From: an uncultured virus (IMG/VR IMGVR_UViG_3300022858_000986)
Taxonomy: Duplodnaviria; Heunggongvirae; Uroviricota; Caudoviricetes
Reading direction: 5' to 3' (one strand)
Virus record (IMG/VR): IMGVR_UViG_3300022858_000986
Length of the DNA: 64,000 nt
Shown: piece after piece, positions 2,423 through 57,271 of the stretch
Layout of the letters: each line of letters opens with the position of its first letter
Position numbering within the stretch: position 1 is the stretch's first letter
The notes under the pieces: generated by a model
Told to the model about the DNA's origin: nothing
Database searches by the model: none
Seen by the model: the letters and a program-made list of their open reading frames with translations, nothing else
Position numbers and translations under genes: made by a program

Positions 2423-2936
2423 AAATTGAAGTATATTTGAAATATAATTTCAACAAAGAAAAATGCTGAAGAATTTCTATTCAGAGCTGGGATTAACACC
2501 AATAGCAAAAGTCGTAAATAATATAAAGGAGACAATTATGTATAAACAAGTAGAGACAGACAAAATATCAATGTTTGAAAATGGGGCACTCTTCGATCCA
2601 ATTGCAACATTAGCTGATGAACATGGCGGACGATGTCAAATATCAATAGACGATCATTGCTATAACTTAAGTTTAAAACAAGAAGATGGAAAATATAAAA
2701 CCACACCATATATATTTTCAGAAGCTTTTGAAGTTTTAAAAACATTACCGTATCTTGCAATGCCTTAGTAAAGAATAATGAAACGCAAAGAAACATTAGC
2801 ATGATTCAAACATGGTGAGCGATATAGTAAAAAAAAATGGAATTAAATCTTATGGAATGTATAAATTTTACTATATACATAAAGTAGGAAGTAGAAACAA
2901 ATTATATAAAAAAATACATAAAGAAGGAGATTTATT

Positions 2937-3077
2937 ATGCCAAAAAGAGACGGAACAGGACCAAATGGAGACGGAGCAAAAACAGGAAATGAATGGGGTA
3001 AATGTGACGCAGACGGAATAAAAAAAATTAAACCAGGTGGACGTTTTGGTAAAGACTGGGCAGAGCCAAAGAAATAA
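2937..3077 (+). CDS. DUF5320-like small protein
   Basis: MPKRDGTGPNGDGAKTG..WGKC; AAGGAG SD; absent from ORF track. Confidence 0.6.
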   Translation: MPKRDGTGPNGDGAKTGNEWGKCDADGIKKIKPGGRFGKDWAEPKK

Positions 3078-3078
3078 A

Positions 3079-3426
3079 ATGTTTAAGTGAATTAAGACAA
3101 TAGTTAAATGAGCAAAGGTTGGTGTTGAAAATGTATCATCCTTACCAGAACATGCAAAAATAGGATTGCCATTCTCAATATTTTTTATAATTTTTGGTGT
3201 AGTAGCATCATTAATATTTAAGCAATGATGGTTATTTATATGCGCATCTATATTTTATATTGGTATCCTTATAGGTTTTGAAGTTAAGCAATGGAACTTA
3301 CAAGAAGGTAAAGAAAAAATTAAATTCTGATTACAATATAAATTTATTGATAGTTGTTGCGATGTAGTTGCGGGAAGTTGATTGACAATTATAGCAACAG
3401 GACTTGTAATAATATTTTCAATATAA
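3079..3426 (+). CDS. membrane protein (5 in-frame TGA read as Trp)
   Basis: 115-codon frame ending TAA, three hydrophobic segments, fills the intergenic gap exactly. Confidence 0.65.
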
Positions 3427-3436
3427 AGTTGCAAAT

Positions 3437-3471
3437 GCGGGTGTAGCTCAATCGGTAGAGCGTAACGTTGC
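3437..3471 (+). pseudogene. 5' half of interrupted tRNA-Gly
   Basis: GCGGGTG TA GCTC AATCGGTA GAGC GTAACG TTGC, broken inside the anticodon. Confidence 0.75.
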
Positions 3472-3543
3472 GGGTTTATTTTAATGGTAGAATAAATGAG
3501 TGCCACTCATTAGATGGGGATTCGATTTCCCCAATCCGCTCCA
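3470..3543 (+). tRNA. tRNA-Gly(GCC), divergent AT-rich
   Basis: Acceptor GCGGGTT/AATCCGC, U73+CCA, anticodon arm AATGA-GTGCCAC-TCATT, T arm GGGGA-TTCGATT-TCCCC; D-arm spacing slightly non-canonical. Confidence 0.8.
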
Positions 3544-3561
3544 AAAAAGTTTCGATTTTTT

Positions 3562-3594
3562 TTCTCCGCTATATATTTATAGTAGTAAGGAGAA
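3562..3594 (+). promoter_or_regulatory. SD-sequestering hairpin with candidate late promoter
   Basis: TTCTCC/GGAGAA and GCTATA/TATAGT pairings covering the SD of gene 3600; ATATTTATA at apex. Confidence 0.5.
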
Positions 3595-3599
3595 TAAAA

Positions 3600-4454
3600 A
3601 TGAAAAGAATATGTAAATGATGTAAAAAAGAAATTAAATTTAAAAATCTTCAACAATTTGGAGCCCATATTAGAAACTGCCCAAGCAATCCCGCAAAACA
3701 AAAAATAAATGAAAAAATAGCAAAAAAAAATACAAAAGAAAGAAAATTTTATAAGTTTAATTGTAAAAAATGCAATAAAGAATATATGGTTGAACTTACT
3801 AAAACCCAACTTAACAAAGGAAAATATAAAAAATTTTGTAGTAGAAAATGTGCAAACAGCAGACAACATTCAAAAGAGACAATACAAAAAATAACAAAAG
3901 CAAATACTGGCAAAAAATATTTAACAAAAGAAAATTATAAATTTACTAAAATAAAAATAAAACAATGTAAAGTATGTAATGCGCCATTTGTAGTCAAGAC
4001 ATCAAATTCCAAAAAAACATGTTGTTGTAAATTATGCTATGATATACAAAATAAATGGTCAAAAAACAAAGGCGAAAACAACCCAATGTATGGAAAGCCG
4101 CCACTAAATAAAAATTATGTAAGCGGTTATTTCTATAGTAATAAAAATAATAAAACATGGTATTACAAAAGTTCATACGAATTAAAGGCATTTAAAATTA
4201 TTGAAAATAATAAAAACATTCTTTCATACGAATATGAACCATTTAACATTCCATATGACAAGAATAACCATTCGACTATACCAGATTTTTTAGTAATATA
4301 TAAAAATAATAAAAAAAAATTAATAGAAATTAAGCCAAAAAGATTGTTAAATATATGAAACAATAACAAAAAAATAAATATAATGAAAGATTATTGTAAA
4401 AATAATAATATATTATTTGAAGTTTGGACAGAAAAGAAACTATTTACACAATAG
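3600..4454 (+). CDS. free-standing zinc-finger TnsA-like PD-(D/E)XK endonuclease (2 TGA=Trp)
   Basis: CK*C, FCSRKCAN, GENNPMYGK (NUMOD3-like), YEYEPFNIPY...PDFLV...LIEIKP...FEVWTE; 284 aa when TGA at 3618 and 4356 is read through. Confidence 0.8.
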
Positions 4455-4458
4455 AAGT

Positions 4459-4492
4459 GAGGTCGCCAGTTCGAACCTGGTCGTCCGCTCCA
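4459..4492 (+). pseudogene. 3' half of interrupted tRNA-Gly
   Basis: GAGGTC GCCAG TTCGAAC CTGGT CGTCCGC TCCA; acceptor strand pairs with 3437-3443. Confidence 0.75.
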
Positions 4493-4507
4493 AAACAAAC
4501 AAATAAC

Positions 4508-4745
4508 GGGGTAATTTGTAGGATACTCGTTGCGTTTCAAACAACAGAAAAAATAATATCGTTAATCTTGGATAGCGTTAGGAGAAACCTAACAAACAAT
4601 AGTGGATGAAATGCCACCCCAATGTAAGGCTGTCGCCAAGAACTGAAGGCCTAATATATTATTTTTCAACACTAATTTGTAAGATGAACGGCAAACTTGG
4701 TTACAAGAGGCTTTACAGGCCATCACTGAGTTTTCGCAATGCCCA
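4508..4745 (+). ncRNA. candidate structured RNA, unknown family
   Basis: GC-richer region without a convincing ORF, several helices, ends before a terminator. Confidence 0.4.
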
Positions 4746-4768
4746 ATAATCATTCAAAAGATTAGTAT

Positions 4769-4800
4769 AATGATGCACTCTTAAGTGCATCATTTTTTTT
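4769..4800 (+). terminator. intrinsic terminator
   Basis: AATGATGCACT-CTTA-AGTGCATCATT followed by T run. Confidence 0.85.
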
Positions 4801-4821
4801 ACCTAAGAATAAAAAATAAAC

Positions 4822-4870
4822 TTGACAAAACCACCAATAAGAATACTATAGTAATGTAAGTGAGAGAGAT
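4822..4870 (+). promoter_or_regulatory. repeated early promoter module, copy 1
   Basis: TTGACA-N16-TACTAT-AGTAATGTAAGTGAGAGAG; near-identical copies at 7627, 8293, 9426, 22965. Confidence 0.85.
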
Positions 4871-5087
4871 AAAAAAAAATAAAAGGGAGGCAAATTATGA
4901 AATGTAACCAATGCGAAGCCATGGTTGTTAATGGCATTTTTATCCATGAGGTTGGATGTCCAAATGATAGCAAAGAATTTATTGATGGCGAATGGGTTAG
5001 TATTACTGAATGTCCTATTTGCGGTTTTGACGTTATAGAAGGTGAAAGTTGTAGCTGTTATGGTGAAGAAATAGAGGGAGAATAATT

Positions 5088-5339
5088 ATGAAAATGTTAC
5101 AAGGAGAAGCGGTAGACAGATTAGAAGAAATAGCCGAAGAAATGCAAAACCTCGTTGACGAGGCACGTGAAATTGTTAGAGAGTTTAATCATAAAGGCGT
5201 AATGATTGGCAATGCAGACGCATATGTTTTTGAACATCTTAATGAGTCAATTGAAAATCAAAACCGATATAATCAATCTATAATGTCACTTGCAAACGCC
5301 ATTAGAGATTACGGCGAAGATGAAGAGGAGGAGGCATGA
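5088..5339 (+). CDS. hypothetical acidic protein ending at TGA
   Basis: 83 aa; TGA overlaps ATG (ATGA) of next gene at 5336, which has a GAGGAGG SD. Confidence 0.6.
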   Translation: MKMLQGEAVDRLEEIAEEMQNLVDEAREIVREFNHKGVMIGNADAYVFEHLNESIENQNRYNQSIMSLANAIRDYGEDEEEEA

Positions 5340-6123: not shown

Positions 6124-6492
6124 ATGAGCGAGAAAATTAAACAAGTATTAGACATTATCAAAACAATGTCAGTGTGGGAATTTAACGAAACGACTTCGGC
6201 ACTTGAAAAGGAGTTCGATATTGTAGCGAGGCCACCAGAAGCTATTATTGTTCAGAAAGTTGTAAAAGAAGAAGCACAAACAGAATTTGACGTTATAATG
6301 ACTGATTTTATACCAACAAAGAAAATCAGAGTTATTAAAGAAGCAAGAACTATATTAGGCACAATGCTTAAAGAAACAAAAGATTTAGTTGAAGCGAAAA
6401 ATCTTGCGTTATCAACAGGCTGTAATTTAGATGAAGCCAATAGACTAAAGAAAAGATTCGAAGAAATTGGTTGTACAATCATAGTTAAATAA
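6124..6492 (+). CDS. rplL: ribosomal protein L7/L12
   Basis: IKTMSVWEF...LEKEFDI, QTEFDVIM, KKIRVIKEAR...LKETKDLVE. Confidence 0.9.
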   Translation: MSEKIKQVLDIIKTMSVWEFNETTSALEKEFDIVARPPEAIIVQKVVKEEAQTEFDVIMTDFIPTKKIRVIKEARTILGTMLKETKDLVEAKNLALSTGCNLDEANRLKKRFEEIGCTIIVK

Positions 6493-7452: not shown

Positions 7453-7626
7453 AGATTTTGCTTTGTTAGTAGTTGGAATAGCATTTGTTGTATTATAAAT
7501 AAAGGAGATTGGAATGAAATAAAAAACTTACAATACTTTAAGATTAGTTTATTTTAATACCTGAATGTTGTAAATAAGTAAAGTTTTGAATGCATTTGCA
7601 AACCATTCGCAATCAGATTAAAAAAC

Positions 7627-7684
7627 TTGACAAAACCACCAATAAGAATACTATAGTAATGTAAGTGAGAGAGTGAAAGAGATA
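7627..7684 (+). promoter_or_regulatory. repeated early promoter module, copy 2
   Basis: Identical TTGACA-N16-TACTAT core and leader. Confidence 0.85.
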
Positions 7685-7698
7685 ATAAGGAGAGCAAA

Positions 7699-8280
7699 AT
7701 GAAAACAATTAATGCAATTAAATTTAATGAAGATAATATTTATGCGTTTAGAGCAAATATTATTCCATCAAAGCAATATCATAAAAAGTATGGCTTCAAT
7801 TCAATAAGAACTGCTTTTATTCTAAATGCTGGTAGAACGGACATAAATGGTGATTATAATGATTTCAGAGCAATGTCAATAAGTCATGGCGAACAAAATA
7901 TATTCACCTTTACATCATTTAGTACTTTTTTAACAACTTTAAATACACACAATATTCAACTATTTGTTTTCGAAACAATTGCTGAATTTGCAGTATGGGT
8001 ATTGACCAACGCAATTGTAATGGAAGATGCATCCGCAAAAGAAGTACATAGTTATATGAAAAAGCAAATGCCATCAACTTTAGGGCAAATTGCTAAAATT
8101 CAAAGAGCAAAACATTACGATTATAAATCAGAAATAGATAATACAAAAAAATATGGTTGCGACGAATGTGGTTGGGTATATAATGATACAATACAAAGCA
8201 AATCATTTCACGTTCTTGGTAAGTTTTTTGTTTGCCCAGAATGTGGTGCAAACAAAGCTTACTTCACAAAATTGAATTAA
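7699..8280 (+). CDS. protein with C-terminal rubredoxin-like domain
   Basis: YGCDECGWVY...FVCPECGANKAYF. Confidence 0.65.
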   Translation: MKTINAIKFNEDNIYAFRANIIPSKQYHKKYGFNSIRTAFILNAGRTDINGDYNDFRAMSISHGEQNIFTFTSFSTFLTTLNTHNIQLFVFETIAEFAVWVLTNAIVMEDASAKEVHSYMKKQMPSTLGQIAKIQRAKHYDYKSEIDNTKKYGCDECGWVYNDTIQSKSFHVLGKFFVCPECGANKAYFTKLN

Positions 8281-8292
8281 AGATTAATAAAC

Positions 8293-8350
8293 TTGACAAA
8301 ACCACCAATAAGAATACTATAGTAATGTAAGTGAGAGAGTGAAAGAGATA
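8293..8350 (+). promoter_or_regulatory. repeated early promoter module, copy 3
   Basis: Identical core and leader. Confidence 0.85.
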
Positions 8351-8379
8351 AAAAATAAAGAAATAAAGAGGAGATTAAT

Positions 8380-9006: not shown

Positions 9007-9425
9007 TGAAAAAAATAAAAAGAGAAGATATTGAGAATCTATTAATTCTTGATAATTTAAATCCAAATCAAAAAAGATTTCTTAAGATAATGGCAAAATG
9101 GCCAAAAGTAAAAAAATCTCATAATGAAAAAGTAACCCAAGAAGAAATTGAGGTTGCAGAAATATTTCAAGAAATAAGTGACGAAATTGAGATTAATGAT
9201 TCCAAAAATAAGGAGAACAAGTAATGGAAAATAAAAAAGTAGTAGTTACAATCAAATTAGAAATGAGTCCAGAACAATTTTTATCAAGTAATTTCGACGA
9301 TGCATTTGGCTCATTAGGCGAAGTTGGAAATTTAGTATTGAAGAGTGTAGAAACAGAAGGGGCAGAATAAATAAAATGTATTTATGGTTGCATTTCAAGC
9401 GTGAAGAAAGAAGATTAAAATAAAC

Positions 9426-9483
9426 TTGACAAAACCATCAATAAGAATATTATAGTAATGTAAGTGAGAGAGTGAAAGAGATA
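9426..9483 (+). promoter_or_regulatory. repeated early promoter module, copy 4
   Basis: Two substitutions relative to the other copies. Confidence 0.85.
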
Positions 9484-9504
9484 AAAAAAATAAAGGGGGA
9501 TAAG

Positions 9505-10251: not shown

Positions 10252-11292
10252 ATGTTAAGATTTATCAAGTATAGAAGTATAGAAAATAGTTATAGAGAAA
10301 AATTTATCAACATGGTAAGGGAACATGAATATGATGCGCCAGATATTAAATGGGTTGCAACTGAGAAAATTCATGGCGGAAATTTTTCTGTGTGGGTTGA
10401 TAAAGACGAAATTAAACCAGCAAAGAGAACCAGTTTTATCGAAAAAGATGAATTCTTTTTTAATTATGAACTAATAATGGAAAAATATTCCGAAGATGCT
10501 AGAAAGCTATATAAATACTTTAAAAATATACATCCCAATCTTAATCAAATCGCTATATTTGGTGAACTGTTTGGTGGAACTTATCCACATCCAGATGTAT
10601 CAAATGATAAGTGTGGAAAAAAAGTACAAAAAGGCATATATTATTGCCCTCATAATGAATTATATATTTATGATATACTTTTAATATTTGACGATAATAC
10701 AAAAAATAGGCACGTTACTTGGACAGAATTAATAGAAAGTTTAACATATACAAAATCTAAACTTAAAACTCCAAAAGTTTTATTTATTGGTACATTTGAT
10801 GAAATGATAGCTTTACCTAATGATGAGCTGAGTGAAGTATATAAGGATTTCGATCTTCCACCAATAGAAGATAATATTATGGAAGGTTATGTATTTATGC
10901 CAGTAGAAGATTTATACTTTAGAGATAAATCTAGAGTTGCATTTAAGAATAAAAATAAAAAATGGGAAGAAAAAACCAAAGCACCCAAAAAGCAATTAAA
11001 AGAAGTCAATGAAGCAATCAAACCTATCGTTGAAGAAATCAGCATGTATGTTACTGAAAATAGATTACGTAACGTTTTATCTCACATTGGAGAAATTACA
11101 AACAAAGATTTTGGTTTACTTAACAAAGAATTTATTGCTGATGTTATGAAAGATTACATTGAAGAAAATGGTAGTGATGCATTAAATGTACTTGTCAAGA
11201 AAGACAGAAAATTAATAAATAAGAATGTTGGAAAACAAACTGCTCAATTAATTGGGGCAAATTTCCTAAATATACTGGATAATGAGTATTAG
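10252..11292 (+). CDS. RNA ligase, Rnl2 family
   Basis: Y.SIEN, TEKIHGGNFS (motif I), FGELFGG.YPH, VQKGIYY, EGYV, FKNKN. Confidence 0.9.
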   Translation: MLRFIKYRSIENSYREKFINMVREHEYDAPDIKWVATEKIHGGNFSVWVDKDEIKPAKRTSFIEKDEFFFNYELIMEKYSEDARKLYKYFKNIHPNLNQIAIFGELFGGTYPHPDVSNDKCGKKVQKGIYYCPHNELYIYDILLIFDDNTKNRHVTWTELIESLTYTKSKLKTPKVLFIGTFDEMIALPNDELSEVYKDFDLPPIEDNIMEGYVFMPVEDLYFRDKSRVAFKNKNKKWEEKTKAPKKQLKEVNEAIKPIVEEISMYVTENRLRNVLSHIGEITNKDFGLLNKEFIADVMKDYIEENGSDALNVLVKKDRKLINKNVGKQTAQLIGANFLNILDNEY

Positions 11293-12336: not shown

Positions 12337-12417
12337 TAAAAAAAATAAAACAAACTTGACAAGTTCGTCTAAAAGAATATTATAGTATAGTAAGTTAAAT
12401 AAAGGAGAGAAAAAAAA

Positions 12418-12777
12418 ATGGCAAAAATTTTTATATTGGAAGATAACGATGAAAGAATTGCTCAATTTCGTAAGAACTTTAGAAATGCAGATTTAACTAT
12501 TGCAAAAGAAAGTAAAAAAGCAATAAAAATATTACGAAAAGAGAATCCTTTTGACTATATATTCTTAGACCACGACTTAGGCGGATTAGAAATGGTAGAG
12601 TCTGATGGGGGTACTGGGTATGAAGTGGCACAATGGTTGGCAAAAAATGCTTTAAAAAAACCAAAGTTTGCACTTTATGTGCATTCGTTAAATTTTCCTG
12701 GCGCAACTAACATAATTAGTGAACTTGGATATGGAAGTCATATACCATTTGTTTGGACAAAATTAATAAGTTTTTAA
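12418..12777 (+). CDS. receiver-like domain, cyclic-phosphate-processing (cREC) type
   Basis: IFILEDN..R, IFLDHDLG, TGYEVAQWL, VHS.N..G. Confidence 0.7.
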   Translation: MAKIFILEDNDERIAQFRKNFRNADLTIAKESKKAIKILRKENPFDYIFLDHDLGGLEMVESDGGTGYEVAQWLAKNALKKPKFALYVHSLNFPGATNIISELGYGSHIPFVWTKLISF

Positions 12778-13407: not shown

Positions 13408-14142
13408 ATGAAAAAATATGAATGCGAAATATGCGGAGAAGAGTTTGAAAAGTGACAACAAAAAGCAAATCATGTTAGATGAAAGCATAAAAAAATAAAG
13501 TATAGTGAAGATGGCAGAAAAAATTTTTTAAATAGTGTTGATGCCCGATTTGGTAAAAAAATTACAAAAGAAATAATTTGTCCGATATGTAATGGACCAT
13601 TCGAAGTAACCGTTAGAGAAAATCGTCAAGACAAACATAAAAAATTTTGTAGTCAAAAATGTGCCAATGGCAGAAAGTGAAGTGATAAACAAAAAAAGAA
13701 GATTTCGGAAACACTTGCGACCCTTTACAAAGAAAATCCCGAAAAATTTGAAAACTTCATTGCATCAAATCAAAATAATGATAGATTTTCTTCAAAAATA
13801 GAAAGAGGGTTGGCAAAAAAATTAGAGCAATATGGCTTCAAGAGACATTGTAGAATTAAAACCGATGTGATTAATTTCGATATAGATATTGTATCAGAAG
13901 ACAAAAACATTTGGATTGAAAGTGATGGCCCGTATCATTTTAGGAAAATACATAAAAACCATGATTTCGAAAAATCACAATTAAGAGATTATGTGGAAAA
14001 TAATGAAGCCATAAATCAAAATAAATTATTAATTAGAATTGATAACGAAAAATATAAAGATATTGACATCCAAGTTAAATTAATATTAAATGAAATAAAT
14101 AAATGAGACAAAAAGATTGGAGAGGTTATTAAATTTTTTTAG
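13408..14142 (+). CDS. free-standing zinc-finger Vsr/DUF559-like endonuclease (4 TGA=Trp)
   Basis: C2H2 finger CEICGEEFEK*QQKANHVR*KH, FCSQKCAN, IDI...IESDGPYHF...RD...LIRI; 244 aa to TAG. Confidence 0.8.
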
Positions 14143-15474: not shown

Positions 15475-15960
15475 ATGAGAGTAATATTTTTAGATTTTGA
15501 TGGAGTATTAAATAATGGCAAGTTTTTGTTTCATAACATGAGTAATTATCCAGATTTAATAATGAAAGAAAAGGTAAAATTGCTAAATACCTTAATAGAA
15601 AGAACAAACGCCAATATTGTTTTTTCAACTTCGTGGAGAGAGCAATTCACTTTTGAAGGCTTAATAGAAATTCTTGAAAAAGTAGAATTCAAATACAGAG
15701 ACAAATGTGTTGGCGTTACACCAATTGCAGAAAATAACAAACGCATTTCAGAAATTAAAGAATATATAGATACAAATAATATTGACGAGTTTGTAATTCT
15801 TGATGATTGTGCTGAAGAACTTTCTGGATTTGGTAATAATTTAACAAAACTTATAATAGACCCGAATAATGGTCTTACATACGAAGATGTTTGTTTTGTA
15901 ATTGAATCATTTGAAGCACAAAAAATAGAAAAGGAGAAAAATAATGAAAACAAAAACTAA
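15475..15960 (+). CDS. HAD phosphatase, Swiss-army-knife RNA-repair type
   Basis: IFLDFDGVLN, IVFSTSWR, R..EI..Y, FVILDD, GLT. Confidence 0.8.
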   Translation: MRVIFLDFDGVLNNGKFLFHNMSNYPDLIMKEKVKLLNTLIERTNANIVFSTSWREQFTFEGLIEILEKVEFKYRDKCVGVTPIAENNKRISEIKEYIDTNNIDEFVILDDCAEELSGFGNNLTKLIIDPNNGLTYEDVCFVIESFEAQKIEKEKNNENKN

Positions 15961-21614: not shown

Positions 21615-22964
21615 AACCTACACATTCCGTAATTTATCAGAATCAGAAATTGAAAGTTTATTAGCAACAGTAGCAACTCAAAAATTATATAGGAGAGCGG
21701 CAATTGAAACAAAAGTTAATTCCATCGAATCAATGGGGACATTTTTAGATGGGACGCCTAAATACTTTATCAAAATTGAAACAGACGATACAAAATTAAT
21801 TGAACGTTTTCAAAAAAATGAAAGAAAAATATAATGAGGTGAATAAAATGTTTGGAAGTAAAATTGAAATACTAGAAGATAAATATAACAAATTACAGGA
21901 GGTATAATGAAATTTGATGTTTTAAAATTAGCACCCGATTTTCCTGATGAATTTGCCTATAAGTATAACAAAACTGCTTTAGAGATTGTGCAAAAAAAAT
22001 TTGACATAGAGAAACTTGCAAACGATGTTTTCGCTATATCAAATAACGAAATGTCATTTTTTGTTATTTATGATGATATTGATAAATGTTGGAATTCAAG
22101 TATTGAAAATGAGCTTAATTTCAAGAAAGAAAAGCTTGAAGAAATTTCAACAAATAATTTTCATCAGTTTGTTGCTTTAAATTGTTTGCATACCGCACTT
22201 GCTGATAATGCAAGGTTATTTTTGAAAGACAATGTAAACGAAATCCTTGACAAAATAATGAAAAAAAGATAATTTTATCTTTAGTTAATAAGGGGGTGGA
22301 GTTGGGCGTAATAAATCAGGAATCATTAGGAAAATTAAAAGATAGATATTGGGAGATTGTAAATGAAAAATAATAAAGTATTTAGTGACTATAATGGTTA
22401 TGCAATTAAATGCCGCAATATTAATGAAAGAATAGAAATTTGCTCAAAAATTAAAACATATGGCTTTGATATCGCAAATGGACTTATCACCAATAATTTG
22501 CAAAACTATTTAACTTTAGTTATTTATAAATCAAGCGGACTTGATGCATATTCATCCTACCCAAAAGAATTAAAATACGTATCTAAAAAAATATTTTTAA
22601 GATTATTCTTAAATGGGAAAGGCAATAAGTTTACAATATACGGAGAAAAAATAAATTAGGAATGGAAAATGACCAAATATCAAAGGTATAAAAATTATGC
22701 GTATGAATGCAAAACTGATAGAGGAAGAATAGAATTATGTACTTACCTGAAAAATAGGGGTCTTAAAGTACCAAAGCAATTAATAAATAAAGAAACCACA
22801 GGTTGGAGAATATTGTATGTTGATCAGCAGGGAATAATAAATGCATACAATGAAATGGCACATAATAAGTTAAAATACATTTCGAAAACTCTTTTTCAAA
22901 GTTTGTTGTTATATCGTTTTTCAATCTATGGCGAAAAAAGAATGTTAGAAAGTTAAATAAAAGA

Positions 22965-23022
22965 TTGACAAAACCACCAATAAGAATACTATAGTAATGT
23001 AAGTGAGAGAGTGAAAGAGATA
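22965..23022 (+). promoter_or_regulatory. repeated early promoter module, copy 5
   Basis: Identical core and leader; upstream of a small ORF and rtcB. Confidence 0.85.
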
Positions 23023-23262
23023 AAAAATAAAGGAGATAAAATGAAATATATTATTTTAGATTGGATGGACGGAACAAGAACGGAAAAAGACACTAAGCAA
23101 GAAATCTTAGATGAATTTGATAAACAAGTTAGTAATGCAAAAAAAGATAATTCAGAACTTGATATAAGTTGTTTTGAAGAAGTTATTGGAGAATTTGATA
23201 TAAGTTGTTCCGAAGTTCTTGGAGAATTTAACAATATAGATGGTAAGGATAGGGAGTAAAAA

Positions 23263-24801
23263 ATGTTTGAAATTAAAGGGAAATACGGGAAAGCTTTTGT
23301 TCATATAGACCATATAGACGAAACAACTATGGCACAAATTCACAAATTTACGAACAATCCTTTCTTCACAGAAGACATGCATATAATGCCTGACACACAC
23401 GCTGGCAAGGGTGCTGTAATCGGTTTCACTATGCCTTTGCATGGATTGAGCATAATTCCCAACATAATTGGAGTTGACGTTAACTGCGGAATGATTTCTA
23501 TAAGATTAAAAGATTTGACCAGAAAACAAAGAAACAGACTCAGAGCAGAAAATGAAAAATATATGTCAAAAATTGATACAAAAATAAGAGAGTTAATTCC
23601 TATGGGATTTAACATACATACAAATAACGATTTGGATTCAACAATATCACCCGAACGTATATTAAAAGATGTTGCCAAAGAGTCGAAAGAAGAAGCAATC
23701 AAATTTGCTCATAAATTCTATAACAAATTTGGAATAAAGATTATAGATAAAATGCCTGATTATACATCTGATAAATTTCCTAAAGATATATTCAAACGTT
23801 CTGGAGTAGATAGCAACAGATTCTATCAATCAATTGGAACTTTGGGTGGCGGAAATCATTTCATAGAAATTGGAAGGGACGAAGAAGATTCGGTTTGGTT
23901 AACAATTCATACTGGTTCAAGAAACTTTGGAAATTTAGTTGCAAAATACTGGCAAGGAATTGCTGTTGATGAGGCGAAGGGAATCAATGGTTCTATCGAA
24001 GACGAAGTAAAAAAATTAATTGAGAAACTAAAAGCTAAAAAACAATTTGATAAAATTCAAAAAGAAGTTGCGAAGTTAAGAAAGGGATATGAGAACATAA
24101 AGGTAAAAGATGCAGATTTAGCCGTATTGACTGGAGATAACGCCGCAGGATATTTCTTTGATATGATATACGCTGGAAAATACGCTGAATATAACAGAAA
24201 AACTATTCTTGAATTAATTACTGAAACATATAACTGGAATTATGATTACATTGTTAGGTCAAATCATAACTTCATTGACTTTAATGATATGATAATTAGA
24301 AAAGGAGCAATCGCATCTTATAAAGGTACATTAATGGTTATTCCTTTTAATATGAGAGACGGTTTGTTAATTGTTTCAGGAAAATCTAATCCTGCATGGA
24401 ACTATAGTTGTGCTCATGGTGCTGGACGTATTATGTCGAGAACTGAAGCCAAAAGAACTTTAAGCCTCCAAGAAGCAGAAGATAGTATGAGGGCGGCTAA
24501 TATTTATACCAAAGGCGTTCCGCTTGACGAAGCCCCTAAGGCTTACAAAGACGCAAAAATAATTGAAGACGCTCTGAAAGACACGATGAGTGTTGTATAT
24601 AGAGTTAAACCCGTTTTAAATATAAAAGATCTTTCGTCAGGGAAGAAATGGAAAAAAATAAGGAAAAATAAAATGAGAAAATCAAAAAAAATAGATACAA
24701 TAGATATAAATCGAGGTGTTTCTTTAGTAGCATTAAGAGATTGGTGCAACAAACAAATTAAAGCGAGCGCCAAAGACAAAGTGCGTACAGATATTGAGTA
24801 G
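23263..24801 (+). CDS. rtcB: RtcB RNA ligase
   Basis: MPDTHAGKG, GVDVNCG, GTLGGGNHFIE, HTGSR, HN, RKGA, HGAGR, DEAP.AYK. Confidence 0.95.
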   Translation: MFEIKGKYGKAFVHIDHIDETTMAQIHKFTNNPFFTEDMHIMPDTHAGKGAVIGFTMPLHGLSIIPNIIGVDVNCGMISIRLKDLTRKQRNRLRAENEKYMSKIDTKIRELIPMGFNIHTNNDLDSTISPERILKDVAKESKEEAIKFAHKFYNKFGIKIIDKMPDYTSDKFPKDIFKRSGVDSNRFYQSIGTLGGGNHFIEIGRDEEDSVWLTIHTGSRNFGNLVAKYWQGIAVDEAKGINGSIEDEVKKLIEKLKAKKQFDKIQKEVAKLRKGYENIKVKDADLAVLTGDNAAGYFFDMIYAGKYAEYNRKTILELITETYNWNYDYIVRSNHNFIDFNDMIIRKGAIASYKGTLMVIPFNMRDGLLIVSGKSNPAWNYSCAHGAGRIMSRTEAKRTLSLQEAEDSMRAANIYTKGVPLDEAPKAYKDAKIIEDALKDTMSVVYRVKPVLNIKDLSSGKKWKKIRKNKMRKSKKIDTIDINRGVSLVALRDWCNKQIKASAKDKVRTDIE

Positions 24802-33532: not shown

Positions 33533-36500
33533 TTGGAAAAGTTATTAAATTTACATGCTCATAGTTGCCACTCTATATTTGATGGTATTGCAAAACCTTA
33601 TGAGTATGCAAGATACATATCTGAAAACCCAGATAAGTTTTATCAAGCGTTATCTATATCAGATCACGGAACATTAAATGGTATGGTCGAAACATTTTGG
33701 GCGGCAAAGAAATACAAGCTTAAATACATACCATCATGCGAGATATACATGGCACCAACACCGGAAGACATTAGTGGTGTTAGATATCATTTAGTTTTAT
33801 TCGGCGTCAACGAAAAGGGAATGAACCAACTCGTTCAAATTAACAATATGGCAATCAAACGTGGGCAGATATTTAAAAGTAGAATTGGAAGGCAATATAC
33901 AATTATTACACCAGATATAATGAAAGAAGTTATCGGTAGAGAAAAGGGATTTCTAAAATGTTCTGGGGCATGTATTGGTGGATATTTTAATAGTGAAATT
34001 CTACATGACAGAATGGATGTTGCCGAAGAAAGGGTTGAACAATTAATCGATATATTCGGCGAAAGAAATGTATATGGTGAGTACCAAACATTTTATGATG
34101 AAGACGAAATGCAAAAAAAAGTTAATATGGGCGTAAAGAAACTATCGGAAAAATACAACTTACAAACAATTATTACTTCAGACGCACATGCATTAAAAAA
34201 AGAAGACCTACAATACAGCATGGTTGTAAGGGCTATGTCAATGAAAATGACTTTGAATGATTATATGGCAAAATTTAGTAGCGATGTTGTAAATTCAATT
34301 TATTACAAATCTGCCGAAGATTTTACGAATGATTTGGCAAAACATGATTTTGGCATTACTCAAGAAGATTTGAAAAATAGTTTAGAAACAACTGGCAAAA
34401 TATTCAAGTTAATACAATCATTTGACTTACATAAAGGGCAAAGTTTTGTATTTGAAGATGGCGACAAAAAGAAAAATAATAAAATGTTTCTTCAGTATTT
34501 AAGTGAAGGCTGGAAAGAAAAGATTAAAAATAAAATAGATACCAAAAACCACCCAAAATATAAAGCGAGATTGAAGCATGAAATTGACATACTGATGCAA
34601 AAGGGGTTTGTTGATTACTTTTTGGCCGTACGTAAAATTGTATTGGTGGCAGAAGAGAAAGGTATTATCAGAGGTGTTGGAAGAGGTAGTGCGGCAGGTT
34701 CGCTCGTTTCATATTTATTAGACATTACAAACGTTGACCCTATTAAACATAATTTATTATTTGATAGATTTATTAATGTAAAAAGAATGGATTTTCCAGA
34801 TATTGACGTAGATATTTCTAATAGAAAAGCAGTTGTAAAAATTATTCAAGAATTGTATCCAAATAAAGATGTAGTTGTTGTATCAAATAAAGGTAAATTA
34901 TTATTAAAGAATACATTGCAATATTTATGTAAAGTATTGGATGTTAAATATCCTAAAACATATTATGTTGATAATGGATTACATTTTTCAAAATTAATTG
35001 TTGCACATGAAATTGGGAATGGTCAGATTGATAAATTTATGGAGTTAAAGGATGCTATAAAATTATCAAGATGGATACTTGCGGAACATAAACTTGATTT
35101 GGCCGAAATGTTAAAGATACTCGTTGGCAATATATCGACCACAGGCGTACATGCTGGCGGCGTATGTATCTTAGAACATAACCAGGGAGTTGTACCTTAT
35201 ACGCCAATTGCAAATGCTGATTACCCATATGGCTCTGGATTATCGGAATCAGGTAGTAGTCTTGAGCTTGAATATGTTGGAGAAATTAAATTTGACTTTT
35301 TGGGTATTAAAACATTAAGAATATTTAAAGATATGGTTGGTAATCTTGCAAAGTGGGATAAAGAAAAAATGAAAGAACTTAATCATAATTTAATACGATT
35401 TAATAAAATTGATATTAACGACCCACTTGTGTACAAGTTTCTTAACCAAGCAGTTACAGAAGGCATATTTCAATTTGGTTCGTCGGGAATGCGCCGAATG
35501 TTAAAGATATTAAAGCCCAAAAACATGGAAGACTTGTCGGCGTTAAATGCCTTGTATAGGCCAGGTCCATTGGGTGCTGGTATGCATAAAGAAATAGCAA
35601 AAGCAAAAAAGAATAAAAGTTATGGCAAATCATTATGGGATAAGAAGATACTTAATTTAGTTGAAGATATAATTACGGTCACAGACTATCAAATATTATA
35701 TGAGGAACAAACAATGCTTATAGGCAAAGTGATTGCTGATTATTCCGACGAAGACTTAAATGACTTTAGAAAGTTTTTGAAAAAACCCAAAAGAGATGCG
35801 ACTTTTTTTGCAAATCAAAAAAGATTTTATGATGCATTTATGACAAATGGAAAACTTAAAGACATAAGCGAAAAAGCATTACAGACCTTGTGGGATAAGT
35901 TGGTTAAGTTTTCAAAATATTCGTTTAATAAATGTTTGGGCGGAGATACGCTTATTCAAACTCAAAACGGAGCAAAAGAAATAAAATATATAAAATCAGG
36001 CGATAAAGTTTTGTCTTATGATATTGATAATGATGATATTATTGAGGCCGAAGTTAAAGAATTACATAGAAATGGAAGGAAAAAATTATATAGTATTGAG
36101 GCCGATACTGGTGAAATAATAAAATGTACCTTAGACCATAAATTTTTAACCGTTGATGGAGAAATGCATTCACTTAAAGAAATATTAGATAATGATTTAG
36201 AATTAAAAAGTTTAGAAAAAGATAATATGAAGTTCTTAAAAGAAACATTAAAAGAGATTGGTTATAGACAGACATATGATTTGGAAATAAATCACAAAGA
36301 CCACAATTTTTTAATTGGAAATGATTTAATTGTAACCAGCAATAGTCATTCCATGAGTTATGCGTATAATTCATTTTTATGTGCTTATTTTGCGACATAT
36401 CATCCGTTGGACTGGTATGCAACATTATTGAAACATGAAAACCCAATCGAATTCATTCCAGTAATTAAAGAGCATATACAGAAAAGAAGTTTAGATATTA

Positions 36501-37282
36501 AAGTTATGCCTCCAAGACTTAACGTATCAAGGACTTATCCAATACCAGACCATAAAAATAATGCAATTATTTTGGGGACATCATTGATTAAGGGTGTTGG
36601 GCCAAAAGCTGGCACTGAGCTTAGTAGAGTAAATAAAGTTGGTAAAGATTATTTCACATTAGAAGAATTCTTAACAAGCCCTGATATTGACCACAGAAGG
36701 ATTAATAAAGGAGTAGTTGAAAAGTTAATTCTAATAGGTTACTTCGATGGTTTTGGCGTAGATAGACTTGAGTTATTGTTGAAGCTTGAGAAGACAAAAA
36801 TTACAAAGAAAAAACTTTTAGAATGGAAAGAAAGTGAAGAAGAAAATGATAAAGCATTTCTTGACAATAAATATGGTGGTATCAGAAATAAAGAAATGTT
36901 CTTATATAAGAGAGAATTATTAAACTTAGGCACAGCAGTTATGGAGCATCCAATTAAAGATGAACTTCCTAAAATAATTGAATTGTTAAAGAGTGAAATC
37001 CCTATAAATAAAAGAGATAGTGCAATACCAGTCGTTGTTAATAACATTGAACAAGTACGTGTAAAAGAAACAAAGAATGGTAAAAAATTCTTAGCAACAT
37101 CATTTAGAGATATTGACGGTAATTTATATTGGATGAATATTTGGGATAATCAAATTGAAGAACTTAAAGAAGACCATGATTTTGATTTAGAGAACCCAAA
37201 AGATTATAATAGAACGTGTGTTATGTTAATTGCAGATAGTAATGGTTGGAAAAATTTATTGAATTTTATAGCAATAGAATAA
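33533..37282 (+). CDS. dnaE: DNA polymerase III alpha subunit with intein
   Basis: PHP LHAHS..S..DG, SDHG; GRGSAAGSLV; PDIDVD; HAGG; KFDFLG; LYRPGP; FNK/SH; TTG start behind a TTGACA-N16-TATTAT promoter. Confidence 0.95.
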   Translation: MEKLLNLHAHSCHSIFDGIAKPYEYARYISENPDKFYQALSISDHGTLNGMVETFWAAKKYKLKYIPSCEIYMAPTPEDISGVRYHLVLFGVNEKGMNQLVQINNMAIKRGQIFKSRIGRQYTIITPDIMKEVIGREKGFLKCSGACIGGYFNSEILHDRMDVAEERVEQLIDIFGERNVYGEYQTFYDEDEMQKKVNMGVKKLSEKYNLQTIITSDAHALKKEDLQYSMVVRAMSMKMTLNDYMAKFSSDVVNSIYYKSAEDFTNDLAKHDFGITQEDLKNSLETTGKIFKLIQSFDLHKGQSFVFEDGDKKKNNKMFLQYLSEGWKEKIKNKIDTKNHPKYKARLKHEIDILMQKGFVDYFLAVRKIVLVAEEKGIIRGVGRGSAAGSLVSYLLDITNVDPIKHNLLFDRFINVKRMDFPDIDVDISNRKAVVKIIQELYPNKDVVVVSNKGKLLLKNTLQYLCKVLDVKYPKTYYVDNGLHFSKLIVAHEIGNGQIDKFMELKDAIKLSRWILAEHKLDLAEMLKILVGNISTTGVHAGGVCILEHNQGVVPYTPIANADYPYGSGLSESGSSLELEYVGEIKFDFLGIKTLRIFKDMVGNLAKWDKEKMKELNHNLIRFNKIDINDPLVYKFLNQAVTEGIFQFGSSGMRRMLKILKPKNMEDLSALNALYRPGPLGAGMHKEIAKAKKNKSYGKSLWDKKILNLVEDIITVTDYQILYEEQTMLIGKVIADYSDEDLNDFRKFLKKPKRDATFFANQKRFYDAFMTNGKLKDISEKALQTLWDKLVKFSKYSFNKCLGGDTLIQTQNGAKEIKYIKSGDKVLSYDIDNDDIIEAEVKELHRNGRKKLYSIEADTGEIIKCTLDHKFLTVDGEMHSLKEILDNDLELKSLEKDNMKFLKETLKEIGYRQTYDLEINHKDHNFLIGNDLIVTSNSHSMSYAYNSFLCAYFATYHPLDWYATLLKHENPIEFIPVIKEHIQKRSLDIKVMPPRLNVSRTYPIPDHKNNAIILGTSLIKGVGPKAGTELSRVNKVGKDYFTLEEFLTSPDIDHRRINKGVVEKLILIGYFDGFGVDRLELLLKLEKTKITKKKLLEWKESEEENDKAFLDNKYGGIRNKEMFLYKRELLNLGTAVMEHPIKDELPKIIELLKSEIPINKRDSAIPVVVNNIEQVRVKETKNGKKFLATSFRDIDGNLYWMNIWDNQIEELKEDHDFDLENPKDYNRTCVMLIADSNGWKNLLNFIAIE
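35933..36343 (+). mobile_element. mini-intein (137 aa, no endonuclease)
   Basis: FNK|CLGGDT...TLDHKF...TYDLE...HNF...TSN|SHS. Confidence 0.9.
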
Positions 37283-41907: not shown

Positions 41908-42927
41908 ATGATTAGAACAGCAGAATGTGTAACGCCAAAGCACCCAGATAAAATTTGTGATAGAATCGCTGATGCAATTTTAGATAAGTGTTTAGAACAA
42001 GATAAAAATTCAAGATGTGCGATTGAAGTAATGGGCGGACATGGTATCATTACTATTACTGGAGAGATAACCACAAATGCGTGGGTTGATATACCAAATA
42101 CCGTTAGAGCCATTGCCGGTGACAAATATGGAGTACAAATAAATGTAGCAAAACAAAGCCCAGAAATCTCAAATGGGGTTGATACAGGTGGTGCTGGTGA
42201 CCAAGGAATTATGGTTGGGTATGCTTGTACAGAAAACGCAGGGCTTATACCAAATGAACATTATTTGGCAAAAGATTTATGTAAAAATCTTTATGATAAA
42301 TTTTCAACTGATGGTAAAACACAAATTACAATTAATGATGGGCTTATAACGCATGTAGTCGCAAGCTTTCAAGGTGTTAAACAAAGCATATTACAAAGTT
42401 ATGCCGAGCGTTGGTTGCAAAACATAGACACAGCAAAGGGTGTAAAGGTTCTTTGTAACCCAGCGGGTGACTGGCATGTTGGCGGATTTGACGCTGACAC
42501 GGGCGTTACAGGTAGAAAATTAATTGTTGATAATTATGGACCAAGAGTGCCAATTGGCGGTGGAAGTTTCAGCGGAAAATGCGGAAGTAAAACTGATAGA
42601 AGTGGTGCTTATATGGCAAGATATATTGCACTTGACATATTAAGACAAGAAACAGAAAAAAATAAGAAACATAGAGAAGTAATTGTTAAACTTGCATATG
42701 CGATTGGAGTTTCGAAACCAGTTCAGGCTTATGCGATTGTTAGAGAAGAGTTTGAAGATGGCATCATTAAAGAGCGTCAAATTGATTTAATTGATAAATA
42801 TGATTTACGTCCAAAAGCGATTATTGAAAAATTAGAATTACAAAATCCTATCTTTTTAGAAACAGCGGAATGGGGTGCGTTTGGTAATATTGAAACTAAC
42901 TTCCCATGGGAAAAGACAGAGGTATAG
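41908..42927 (+). CDS. metK: S-adenosylmethionine synthetase
   Basis: HPDKICD, GAGDQG, DGKTQ, D.G.TGRK, GGGSFSGK, DRSGAY. Confidence 0.95.
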   Translation: MIRTAECVTPKHPDKICDRIADAILDKCLEQDKNSRCAIEVMGGHGIITITGEITTNAWVDIPNTVRAIAGDKYGVQINVAKQSPEISNGVDTGGAGDQGIMVGYACTENAGLIPNEHYLAKDLCKNLYDKFSTDGKTQITINDGLITHVVASFQGVKQSILQSYAERWLQNIDTAKGVKVLCNPAGDWHVGGFDADTGVTGRKLIVDNYGPRVPIGGGSFSGKCGSKTDRSGAYMARYIALDILRQETEKNKKHREVIVKLAYAIGVSKPVQAYAIVREEFEDGIIKERQIDLIDKYDLRPKAIIEKLELQNPIFLETAEWGAFGNIETNFPWEKTEV

Positions 42928-56875: not shown

Positions 56876-57271
56876 ATGACCGAAGCAGTAGAAAATGAAT
56901 GCAGAGAGATTGTTAGACCAACAACAATTTTTTGCGACGTTGACGGAACATTACTTAAACATGAGGGCCCAATGATGGGGATTGCAACAAAAGACGCAAA
57001 GACAATAATTTTACCAGGCGTAAGAGCAAAACTTGAAGAATGGGACTTAAAGGGCTATAATTTAATTTTAACAACAGGAAGGCGAGAAAGTGCGAGAGTA
57101 GCAACTGAAAGACAATTGGCAAGAATTGGAATAGCATATGATCAATTGGTTATGGGCATTAGTGGCGGCGAGCGTTACGTAATTAATGATACAAAACCAG
57201 ACTCCGACGATCCAACATGTTTTGGAATAACAGTAAAAAGAAATAAGGGAATAGAAGGCGTAAGCGTATAG
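56876..57271 (+). CDS. HAD-superfamily phosphatase
   Basis: FCDVDGTL, LTTGR, YDQLVMG, IND. Confidence 0.8.
   Translation: MTEAVENECREIVRPTTIFCDVDGTLLKHEGPMMGIATKDAKTIILPGVRAKLEEWDLKGYNLILTTGRRESARVATERQLARIGIAYDQLVMGISGGERYVINDTKPDSDDPTCFGITVKRNKGIEGVSV

Follow-up and report, generated by a model that had tools for sequence, protein, structure and literature searches.

How does a free-standing endonuclease gene come to lie inside a tRNA gene, and what becomes of the tRNA that it breaks? Homing endonucleases usually spare their host, residing within self-splicing introns or inteins or between genes. The locus considered here belongs to a large salt-lake phage, of which a stretch of 64,000 nucleotides (the window) was analysed, and consists of a cassette lying within the phage's own tRNA-Gly(GCC) gene, in the anticodon region. 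The initial annotation had described a 5' tRNA half, a complete inner tRNA, a nuclease and a 3' tRNA half, and all four are present at the positions given. The features are as follows:

3437..3471, + strand: relic 5' part of the ancestral tRNA-Gly(GCC), nucleotides 1-35, identical at 35/35 nucleotides to the intact tRNA of metagenome contig L050 (see below)

3470..3543, + strand: complete inner replacement tRNA-Gly(GCC) of 74 nt (ARAGORN; Rfam RF00005)

3472..4457, + strand: inserted cassette of 986 bp, in place of 6 bp (CAACGT) of the empty allele (BLAST, L050 against the window)

3544..3599, + strand: spacer of 56 nt, whose ribosome-binding site, AAGGAG (3587-3592), precedes the ATG by 7 nt (sequence reading)

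3600..4454, + strand: free-standing homing-endonuclease-like ORF of 284 aa, with TGA read as Trp (translation, Pfam, homologues, AlphaFold, Foldseek)

4116..4451, + strand: nuclease domain, approximately residues 173-284 (Pfam, residue conservation, PDB profiles, Foldseek)

4179-4181, 4284-4286, 4326-4328 and 4332-4334, + strand: catalytic codons for E194, D229, E243 and K245, respectively (homologue alignment)

4458..4492, + strand: relic 3' part, tRNA nucleotides 42-76, inside a block 99.3% identical to L050

4493..4800, + strand: noncoding stretch past the tRNA locus, present in both alleles (terminator scan; RNA fold)

The 35-nt relic 5' part comprises the acceptor strand, the D arm and the 5' strand of the anticodon stem, followed by TTGC, whose final GC represents both the first two anticodon bases and the first two nucleotides of the inner tRNA. 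The relic 3' part retains the last two bases of the stem, the variable loop, the T arm, the acceptor strand, U73 and CCA. Besides the inner tRNA, the noncoding DNA of the insert amounts to just 56 nt and 3 nt. The stretch at 4493..4800 matched no Rfam family and ends with a terminator hairpin (4769-4794) and a T run, according to the terminator scan (RNA fold z -2.84); it is probably where the transcription unit ends. The promoter/terminator scan called no promoter directly upstream of the tRNA. A candidate promoter, TTGACA-17-TGTAAT, was read there by eye alone at about 3384-3412.

Whether the two outer pieces had ever been one gene was answered by an empty site. A pattern search for the uninterrupted form led to one metagenome contig, L050, which carries an intact tRNA-Gly(GCC) of 76 nt (ARAGORN; 63.4 bits in Rfam). 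To the left, L050rc 1-145 corresponds to positions 3327-3471 of the window with 145/145 identical nucleotides, tRNA nucleotides 1-35 included, and to the right L050rc 152-587 corresponds to 4458-4894 with 99.3% identity over 437 nt (BLAST). The relic 3' part shows 0 differences from L050 in the alignment, and the first difference on this side lies 345 nt past the tRNA. Between the two blocks, exactly 6 nt of L050 (CAACGT, tRNA nucleotides 36-41) are absent at the insertion, and 986 bp are present instead. Since the outer pieces are joined as an intact tRNA in L050, within the same flanking DNA, they are the halves of one gene, as the initial annotation had proposed; the uninterrupted relative that it called for is this contig, with near-identical flanks. 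It had also noted that the anticodon-stem strands of the halves do not pair, and indeed the 3' strand, CAACGT, is missing from the window. As these 6 nt belonged to the anticodon loop and stem, the old tRNA gene is dead. The window and L050 carry an occupied and an empty allele of a single site between conserved flanks, a presence/absence polymorphism, and the comparison establishes the insertion as the derived state. Past position 4894 the gene content is unrelated, none of the three downstream ORFs of L050 having a homologue in the window (0/3), which indicates that L050 is a distinct, related phage, of the recipient type that homing needs. The gapped pattern for the uninterrupted form had no match in viral contigs. 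A loose end at 3471 in two contigs of run X21 leads into another intact tRNA-Gly, one whose T arm differs, and was taken as a gene of another organism rather than an empty site.

The inner tRNA is a credible gene in its own right. It scored 55.8 bits with Rfam RF00005 (E 8.9e-11, gathering score 29), was called Gly(gcc) by ARAGORN, has 43% GC and an encoded CCA, and contains G1-C72, C2-G71, G3-C70 and U73 (sequence reading), which we take to be the glycine identity set; its D stem has one U-U mismatch. Compared with the intact outer tRNA, only 43/74 aligned nucleotides are identical (58%), and 10/17 positions of the anticodon arm differ. No donor context was found for the inner tRNA together with the nuclease, and in the annotated phage collection there was generic tRNA-Gly likeness alone, in six Streptomyces phage records (about 80% over 78 nt).

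The ORF lies outside any intron or intein and has its own ribosome-binding site and start codon. It encodes Cys/His zinc fingers, NUMOD3 motifs (Pfam, E 6.9e-7), which are modules typical of homing endonucleases, and a C-terminal TnsA-like PD-(D/E)xK nuclease (Pfam Tn7_TnsA-like_N, PF08722, at residues 204-278: E 1.5e-12, 48.3 bits, cutoff 26.5). A FlhC match in Pfam (E 0.91) was at chance level. No GIY-YIG family matched the ORF at E<=1 in Pfam, indicating that it is not a member of the SegB-type endonucleases, although its mode of action may be similar to theirs. The product was modelled by AlphaFold with a pLDDT of 82.5, and the best Foldseek match of this predicted structure was TnsA (1f1z_A, E 1.6e-6, probability 1.00); in PDB profile searches, TnsA chains were found at E 2.5e-6 to 5.7e-4 and T7 endonuclease I at 6.9e-5. 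Among 14 aligned sequences E194, P228 and E243 do not vary at all and D229 and K245 hardly vary, and the active site E...PD...ExK is intact in the ORF. The zinc-finger TnsA-like nuclease recognised by the initial annotation was thereby confirmed in both active site and fold.

Reading this ORF depends on the genetic code. It contains two in-frame TGA codons, at 3618 and 4356, and is intact only if TGA encodes Trp; under table 11 it is broken, with a fragment of 190 aa. Both codons line up with W/F/Y in homologues, and in a DegT-family enzyme elsewhere in the phage a TGA occupies the conserved W of RDWGR. TGA is Trp in the rest of the phage too.

The homologue set comprises 56 sequences, the query itself included, many of them with NUMOD3, and homologues are common in viral metagenomes and in genomes of candidate-phyla (CPR) bacteria. 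The closest relatives, P0002-P0005, share 43-47% identity, and distant nuclease-domain matches in the annotated phage collection are labelled 'head completion protein'. As the 14-sequence alignment was too divergent for a locus search, a 5-sequence alignment was used instead. Counted without P0002-P0005, distant relatives of the nuclease lay beside tRNAs in 0/44 viral loci and near one in 1/19 genome loci, where a tRNA-Ser stands at a distance of about 2.5 kb. The loci of the relatives being mostly devoid of tRNAs, tRNA targeting is not a trait of the family.

Taken together, these data suggest that the locus is probably a free-standing homing-endonuclease cassette whose insertion inactivates the targeted tRNA gene and which brings a cleavage-immune rescue copy, a reading in which we have fairly good confidence. 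Upon co-infection, the nuclease would cut the intact allele within or close to the anticodon arm, which as DNA forms a pseudo-palindrome, AACGTT-GCC-AACGTT. The occupied allele would then serve as template for repair of the break, the two tRNA relics and their flanks acting as homology arms, and the cassette would be copied in. The carrier would be immune through destruction of the site by the insertion and the 6-nt deletion, and through the 10 altered positions in the inner anticodon arm. A search of the 64-kb window for the 20-nt sequence across the insertion point of the empty allele, allowing up to 3 mismatches, found no copy, as would be expected of a carrier without a cleavable target; we infer that this sequence is the target of the nuclease solely from the position of the cassette. 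The inner tRNA would take over glycine decoding, RNase P trimming the old 5' half as a leader. A nuclease gene with neither intron nor intein could thereby occupy a functional gene at no cost to the carrier. Intron-less homing had been put forward in the initial annotation, and all of its computationally testable predictions held, which lends the interpretation support at the level of sequence. Two points qualify the scheme. The left boundary falls exactly at base 1 of the inner tRNA, with 2-3 nt of microhomology, which is unexplained by simple homing and points either to a single illegitimate event at the origin or to selection having shaped the cassette. Moreover, given the single active site of TnsA-like nucleases, cutting both strands would need dimerisation or a partner.

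The same boundary is relevant to the alternative that survives best, namely that the location is incidental: a single illegitimate recombination placed the cassette here, the nuclease having its target elsewhere or being inactive, and the split tRNA is merely a scar. The microhomology of 2-3 nt at the junctions and the 6-nt deletion resemble end joining, relatives of the nuclease have no tRNA association, and the arrangement is known from one lineage only. However, the ORF has remained intact over 284 codons with every catalytic residue present, and the flanks are near-identical yet the neighbouring genes differ, as expected from co-conversion or recent spread. Insertion into an anticodon-arm palindrome together with a replacement tRNA of the same anticodon would also be a large coincidence. 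We therefore regard an incidental location as unlikely, at roughly one chance in five.

Much less probable is continued production of the outer tRNA by RNA processing, in which the 986 nt would be excised and the halves ligated in archaeal style, for example by phage enzymes. The phage does encode RtcB (23263-24798), an Rnl2-like ligase (10252-11289) and further RNA-repair domains, and an RNase P cut at the inner tRNA would presumably release a 5' half ending at U33. Nevertheless, the 6 nt needed for the anticodon loop and stem are not in the window, so splicing cannot rebuild the outer tRNA. Rfam at E<=1 over 3000-5200 detected no group I or II intron or other ribozyme, the inner tRNA being the sole match, which bears out the earlier remark that no group I core is present. 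ARAGORN in intron mode made no call at the locus, and 0/1692 in-silico joins gave a tRNA-Gly, in line with the earlier judgement that splicing is improbable. With 38 of the 1692 joins ARAGORN made borderline calls (Arg, Cys, Tyr, Ile, 'Stop' or undetermined), which we attributed to the leniency of the program, as three arms are perfect. A group I or II intron in the anticodon loop was accordingly rejected, there being no ribozyme core and tRNA nucleotides 36-41 being missing. An archaeal-type split or intron-containing tRNA with a bulge-helix-bulge was also rejected, the 3' strand of the anticodon stem being gone but for nucleotides 42-43. No splicing-endonuclease domain was found among the 97 ORFs scanned, and the listed sequencing runs with the locus include none of RNA.

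A Tn7-like or other transposon, mobilised by the TnsA-like protein, is just as improbable. Pfam, profile and fold comparisons all relate the nuclease domain to TnsA, but the insert has neither terminal inverted repeats nor a target-site duplication and shows a 6-bp deletion instead. The cassette also has a single ORF, with no TnsB-type transposase, and the NUMOD3 DNA-binding modules of this ORF and its homologues speak against transposition as well.

Finally, that the arrangement is an assembly chimera is hardly conceivable, even though the window derives from a metagenome, given that an independent IMG/VR contig has the identical arrangement at 99.85% identity over 6.85 kb, that 24/24 listed runs (24 coded studies) contain at least 70% of the sampled words, and that in one run a 3957-nt contig spans 2900-4842 with 0 differences. 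No contig joining across the insertion was found in the 4 of the 24 listed runs that were covered; the joints listed in runs had short sides of 21-51 letters with 85% likeness, and were taken as spurious. Scans of viral contigs with the 5' half, the 3' half, the nuclease, the L7/L12 neighbour and the inner tRNA all led to one and the same IMG/VR contig only, and the cassette appears restricted to one lineage.

Returning to intron-less homing with a rescue tRNA, a more specific formulation is that the cassette is a natural 'home-and-rescue' drive, in which a protein-guided nuclease hits the DNA of a tRNA anticodon arm, inserts there, and carries a re-spelled, immune tRNA of the same anticodon. 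This is a tentative reading, whose chances we put slightly below even. An additional escape of the re-spelled tRNA from a host anticodon nuclease, raised in passing in the initial annotation, is speculation of low probability, beside which the RNA-repair genes of the phage (RtcB, Rnl2-like and others) may be cited; if true, the cassette would benefit its carrier, like the SegB-linked tRNA amplification in T6.

The locus makes visible in sequence a third solution to the problem of sparing the host, beyond residence in introns or inteins or between genes: to break the gene and bring a resistant spare. If this is true, a selfish gene lacking both intron and intein can colonise a functional RNA gene without cost, and the nuclease would be the first characterisable member of a class of homing endonucleases with a TnsA-like domain and zinc-finger/NUMOD3 modules. 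The combination of TnsA-like nuclease, NUMOD3 and zinc fingers is a candidate new homing-endonuclease scaffold. Both alleles are known, their flanks are identical and there is a candidate target of 20 bp, so that a cleavage or homing test can be designed directly.

Among known systems, Tn7 TnsA provides the closest solved fold and the profile match of the nuclease domain. In contrast to Tn7, the cassette has no TnsB or TnsC partner, transposon ends or 5-bp duplication, and its protein carries an N-terminal zinc-finger/NUMOD3 region that TnsA lacks. A literature search for TnsA together with a free-standing phage homing endonuclease found no paper.

Group I introns with homing endonucleases occur in the anticodon loops of bacterial tRNAs, for example the tRNA-fMet intron with the PD-(D/E)xK enzyme I-Ssp6803I. 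The cassette resembles these in having an endonuclease gene of the PD-(D/E)xK superfamily in an anticodon loop and a putative palindromic anticodon-arm target, although I-Ssp6803I is absent among the Foldseek matches listed. It differs in that there is no ribozyme, the exons are non-contiguous (6 nt are missing), and rescue comes from a second gene rather than from splicing.

Two other systems share the logic of breaking and restoring. In 'fractured genes', a free-standing endonuclease gene reportedly divides a protein gene, whose function is recovered through split inteins (PMC2677866). There too an endonuclease gene breaks a host gene in two and a built-in device restores function; the products of the halves are reunited by protein trans-splicing, whereas here the halves are left unused and a complete second gene takes their place. 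The same home-and-rescue logic has been designed by synthetic biologists for gene drives, HomeR and cleave-and-rescue drives being engineered examples (PMC7968924). In these, a nuclease targets a needed gene and the element sits there with a recoded, uncuttable copy, as would be the case here if the cassette drives. The engineered drives are synthetic Cas9 constructs in insects, whereas the present element is natural, protein-guided and from a phage.

Like T4 SegB and other Seg/Mob enzymes of intron-less homing, the cassette has a nuclease gene with neither intron nor intein in a phage tRNA locus. SegB is a free-standing endonuclease of a tRNA cluster; the DNA motif that it recognises encodes a tRNA stem-loop, and it promotes the transfer of its own gene and of the tRNA genes beside it to related phages lacking it (PMC2330249). 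SegB genes are reported to be often associated with tRNAs (PMC13096335). SegB is a GIY-YIG enzyme, lies between tRNA genes and targets a T-psi-C motif, whereas the present nuclease is TnsA-like PD-(D/E)xK. Unlike SegB, the cassette sits inside a tRNA gene at the anticodon, with both halves left as relics and a replacement of the same anticodon that is 58% identical. T4 SegB is the closest known system, and the cassette would be a variant of intron-less homing not previously known.

The sequence itself, together with ARAGORN, Rfam and Pfam, bears out the arrangement proposed in the initial annotation, in which a tRNA-Gly gene is split at its anticodon by an element carrying a replacement tRNA-Gly and an endonuclease. 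The locus comprises the following features.

3437-3471, + strand: 5' part of the outer tRNA-Gly (acceptor strand, D arm, 5' strand of the anticodon stem, then TTGC), read from the sequence
3470-3543, + strand: inner tRNA-Gly(GCC), complete, 74 nt (ARAGORN; Rfam tRNA, 55.8 bits, E 8.9e-11)
between the inner tRNA and the ORF, + strand: 56-nt spacer with AAGGAG, read from the sequence
3600-4454, + strand: nuclease ORF, 284 aa with TGA read as Trp, a 190-aa fragment under table 11
ending at 4492, + strand: 3' part of the outer tRNA-Gly (variable loop, T arm, acceptor strand, U73, CCA)

The acceptor strand of the 3' part is complementary to the 5' part. The insert starts at base 1 of the inner tRNA, where only GC (or TGC) is common to both, and stops 3 nt past the nuclease stop codon. 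Inner and outer tRNA-Gly are identical at 43 of 74 aligned bases and differ at 10 of the 17 positions of the anticodon arm. The inner tRNA retains the GCC anticodon, G1-C72, C2-G71, G3-C70 and U73, and should therefore take over the lost tRNA-Gly function. A terminator scan placed a terminator at 4769-4794, where the tRNA locus, probably a single transcription unit, would end. Directly 3' of the locus, 4493-4800 (+ strand) is a noncoding stretch of about 300 nt with higher GC and a strong terminator at its end. It matches no Rfam family, is identical in the relative described below (L050 reverse strand 187-494) and, with a predicted fold z of -2.84, may be transcribed together with the tRNA as a structured RNA.

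Metagenome contigs were searched with the 5' part lengthened by one base, which restricted matches to an uninterrupted GCC anticodon. The uninterrupted relative sought in this way was found once, in contig L050 (1279 bp), which carries an intact 76-nt tRNA-Gly(GCC) (ARAGORN; Rfam 63.4 bits). Its reverse strand matches the window at 100% identity on the left (1-145 against 3327-3471) and at 99.3% on the right (152-587 against 4458-4894, the first difference lying 345 nt beyond the tRNA), and six bases of L050, CAACGT (tRNA nt 36-41), are exchanged for 986 bp (3472-4457) in the window. This empty allele folds into a perfect cloverleaf, whose 5-bp anticodon stem cannot form from the occupied allele; judged from the two alleles, the insertion must be the derived state. 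Beyond 4894 the two sequences are unrelated, and none of the three downstream ORFs of L050 has a homologue anywhere in the window. Because near-identical blocks at the tRNA locus give way to unrelated sequence, L050 is a different, mosaic relative with an unbroken gene. The break-point of similarity falls in a promoter-like element, TTGACA-16-TACTAT (4822-4849). Promoter-like repeats of about 70-90 bp occur at 4813-4900, 7620-7705, 8286-8353, 9417-9498, 12339-12417 and 22955-23025; since it is at the 4813-4900 copy that window and L050 pass from near-identical sequence to unrelated genes, the repeats may be recombination boundaries of gene modules.

Other readings of the insert fared poorly. 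Were it an intron, splicing would restore the outer tRNA; the initial annotation considered this unlikely and saw no group I core. Indeed, Rfam at E<=1 over 3000-5200 returned no group I or II intron, nor any family besides the inner tRNA, and the room for a ribozyme outside tRNA and ORF is only 56 nt and 3 nt. ARAGORN in intron mode made no call for the outer tRNA, and when applied to all 1692 in-silico joins of 5' ends 3450-3485 with 3' starts 4425-4471 it gave 38 marginal calls, none of them Gly, which rules out repair by splicing. A transposon of the Tn7 kind is at odds with a single ORF and a deletion in place of terminal inverted repeats or target duplication. An assembly artefact is dismissed by a matching independent IMG/VR contig and by a 3957-nt run contig that covers 2900-4842 with zero differences. 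The only recovery from scans of viral contigs was a copy of the same phage, 99.85% identical and with the arrangement unchanged.

On the cassette ORF, Pfam matched Tn7_TnsA-like_N (E 1.5e-12, over the cutoff) and NUMOD3 (E 6.9e-7). At E<=0.001 a protein database search yielded 56 proteins, the query included, many of which combine NUMOD3 with a TnsA-like domain; one, from a viral metagenome, is named 'Nuclease associated modular domain-containing protein', and the nearest (P0002-P0005) share 43-47% identity. In a 14-sequence alignment S191, E194, P228 and E243 are invariant and D229 and K245 nearly so, a pattern that reads as the E...PD...ExK signature of restriction-endonuclease-like enzymes. 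The AlphaFold model (mean pLDDT 82.5) has TnsA as its best solved structural match (1f1z_A, E 1.6e-6, probability 1.00), and a profile search also matches TnsA and T7 endonuclease I. Three Cys/His clusters, along with NUMOD3 motifs, lie in the N-terminal two thirds; such modules typically bind DNA in free-standing homing endonucleases. None of 44 viral loci with distant relatives has a tRNA beside the gene, and one of 19 genome loci has one near it (tRNA-Ser, about 2.5 kb off). The putative targeting of a tRNA thus seems particular to the cassette nuclease among its relatives; diverse targets within one homing-endonuclease family are usual. Eleven of the 19 genome loci (L054, L056, L058-L063, L067, L068, L070) belong, by record title, to Patescibacteria/CPR metagenome-assembled genomes, among them Saccharibacteria, Paceibacterota and Falkowbacteria.

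Several points are established at the level of sequence: how the locus is built, which of the two states came first, that the old gene is dead, that the new tRNA and nuclease are intact, and that a related phage with the empty site exists. The interpretation as a homing cassette with a rescue tRNA is supported wherever sequence can test it, and cleavage and homing are its predictions. The nuclease would recognise the intact tRNA-Gly gene around the insertion point, where the outer anticodon arm, as DNA, is a near-perfect palindrome (AACGTT-GCC-AACGTT) that would suit a dimer of a single-active-site nuclease. The 20-nt site has no copy, at up to 3 mismatches, in the carrier's 64-kb window. During mixed infection the occupied allele would be the template for repairing the cut one, and the tRNA relics and flanks, identical over 145 nt or more on the left (the contig limit) and about 380 nt on the right, would serve as homology arms; the old 5' half would be trimmed off by RNase P as a leader of the inner tRNA. 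Homing leaves unexplained the compact boundaries, at inner-tRNA base 1 and 3 nt past the stop, and because they are so compact they suggest that the cassette was founded by an illegitimate event and then shaped by selection, or that it has passed through other tRNA-Gly genes. Contig scans found no donor context for inner tRNA and nuclease. Direct experiment on the cassette is unusually accessible.

The window (30.9% GC, predicted genes nearly all on the + strand) appears to be a segment of a large phage genome, with Pfam matches to Pol III alpha with an intein-like insert, a helicase, SAM synthetase, methyltransferases and a sugar-modification cluster. The 24 public runs listed as containing this stretch all carry the label salt lake metagenome. 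In many genes the reading frame stays open only with TGA read as an amino acid, for example in these ORFs.

47491-49020: 10 TGA
57281-58159: 8 TGA
60494-62629: 7 TGA

The last, a GDP-mannose dehydratase, has seven in-frame TGA codons and a full-length Pfam match. TGA is most likely Trp, since in a DegT-family enzyme one TGA falls opposite the conserved W of RDWGR of a solved homologue (another opposite F) and the two of the cassette nuclease align with W, F or Y in its homologues. In-frame TGA is dense in the sugar-modification region (45-64 kb) and absent from most genes at about 5-45 kb, and ARAGORN found no suppressor tRNA within the 64-kb window. TGA-recoded phages have been described (10.1101/2021.08.26.457843).

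Further genes in the window are as follows.

13408-14139, + strand: second free-standing endonuclease-like ORF, 244 aa, 4 TGA codons
60494-62629, + strand: GDP-mannose 4,6-dehydratase interrupted by an intein with nuclease-like insert (Intein_splicing E 4.3e-22; MTES_1575/DUF559 matches)
33533-37282, + strand: Pol III alpha, weaker intein/Hint matches under curated cutoffs
10252-11289, 12418-12774, 15475-15957, 23263-24798, 56876-57268: RNA-repair set (Pfam)
6124-6489, + strand: ribosomal protein L7/L12 homologue (Pfam)
41908-42924, + strand: S-adenosylmethionine synthetase homologue (Pfam)

The second endonuclease-like ORF, flanked by noncoding gaps, has an N-terminal zinc-finger/KFCSxKCAN module resembling that of the cassette nuclease (BLASTP E 6e-7) and an unlike C-terminal part, which looks DUF559/Vsr-like; Pfam gave nothing at E<=0.001. 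Counting the two free-standing nucleases, the phage has several selfish nuclease elements. The RNA-repair set comprises a T4 Rnl2-like ligase, a cyclic-phosphate-processing receiver domain, HAD_SAK_2, RtcB and a weak PNKP-like HAD match, and its presence suggests that tRNAs or other RNAs come under attack from the host during infection.

In a literature of limited coverage we found no paper on a TnsA-type free-standing phage homing endonuclease, nor, by title and abstract, a description of such a homing-endonuclease cassette in an interrupted or split phage tRNA. Among known systems, the nearest is the intron-less homing of free-standing phage endonucleases, first and foremost T4 SegB, which is described as lying in a tRNA cluster, recognising a tRNA stem-loop motif in DNA and spreading, along with the tRNA genes next to it, into T2-like phages (PMC2330249), and as amplifying a tRNA gene that offsets a defence based on tRNA cleavage (PMC13096335, a recent report). 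The cassette differs from SegB in that its nuclease is of another family, sits inside the target gene and brings a complete, re-spelled substitute. 'Fractured genes' are likewise broken by an endonuclease gene, but are described as rescued by split inteins (PMC2677866). Engineered home-and-rescue drives, as presented in PMC7968924, follow the same logic as the cassette.
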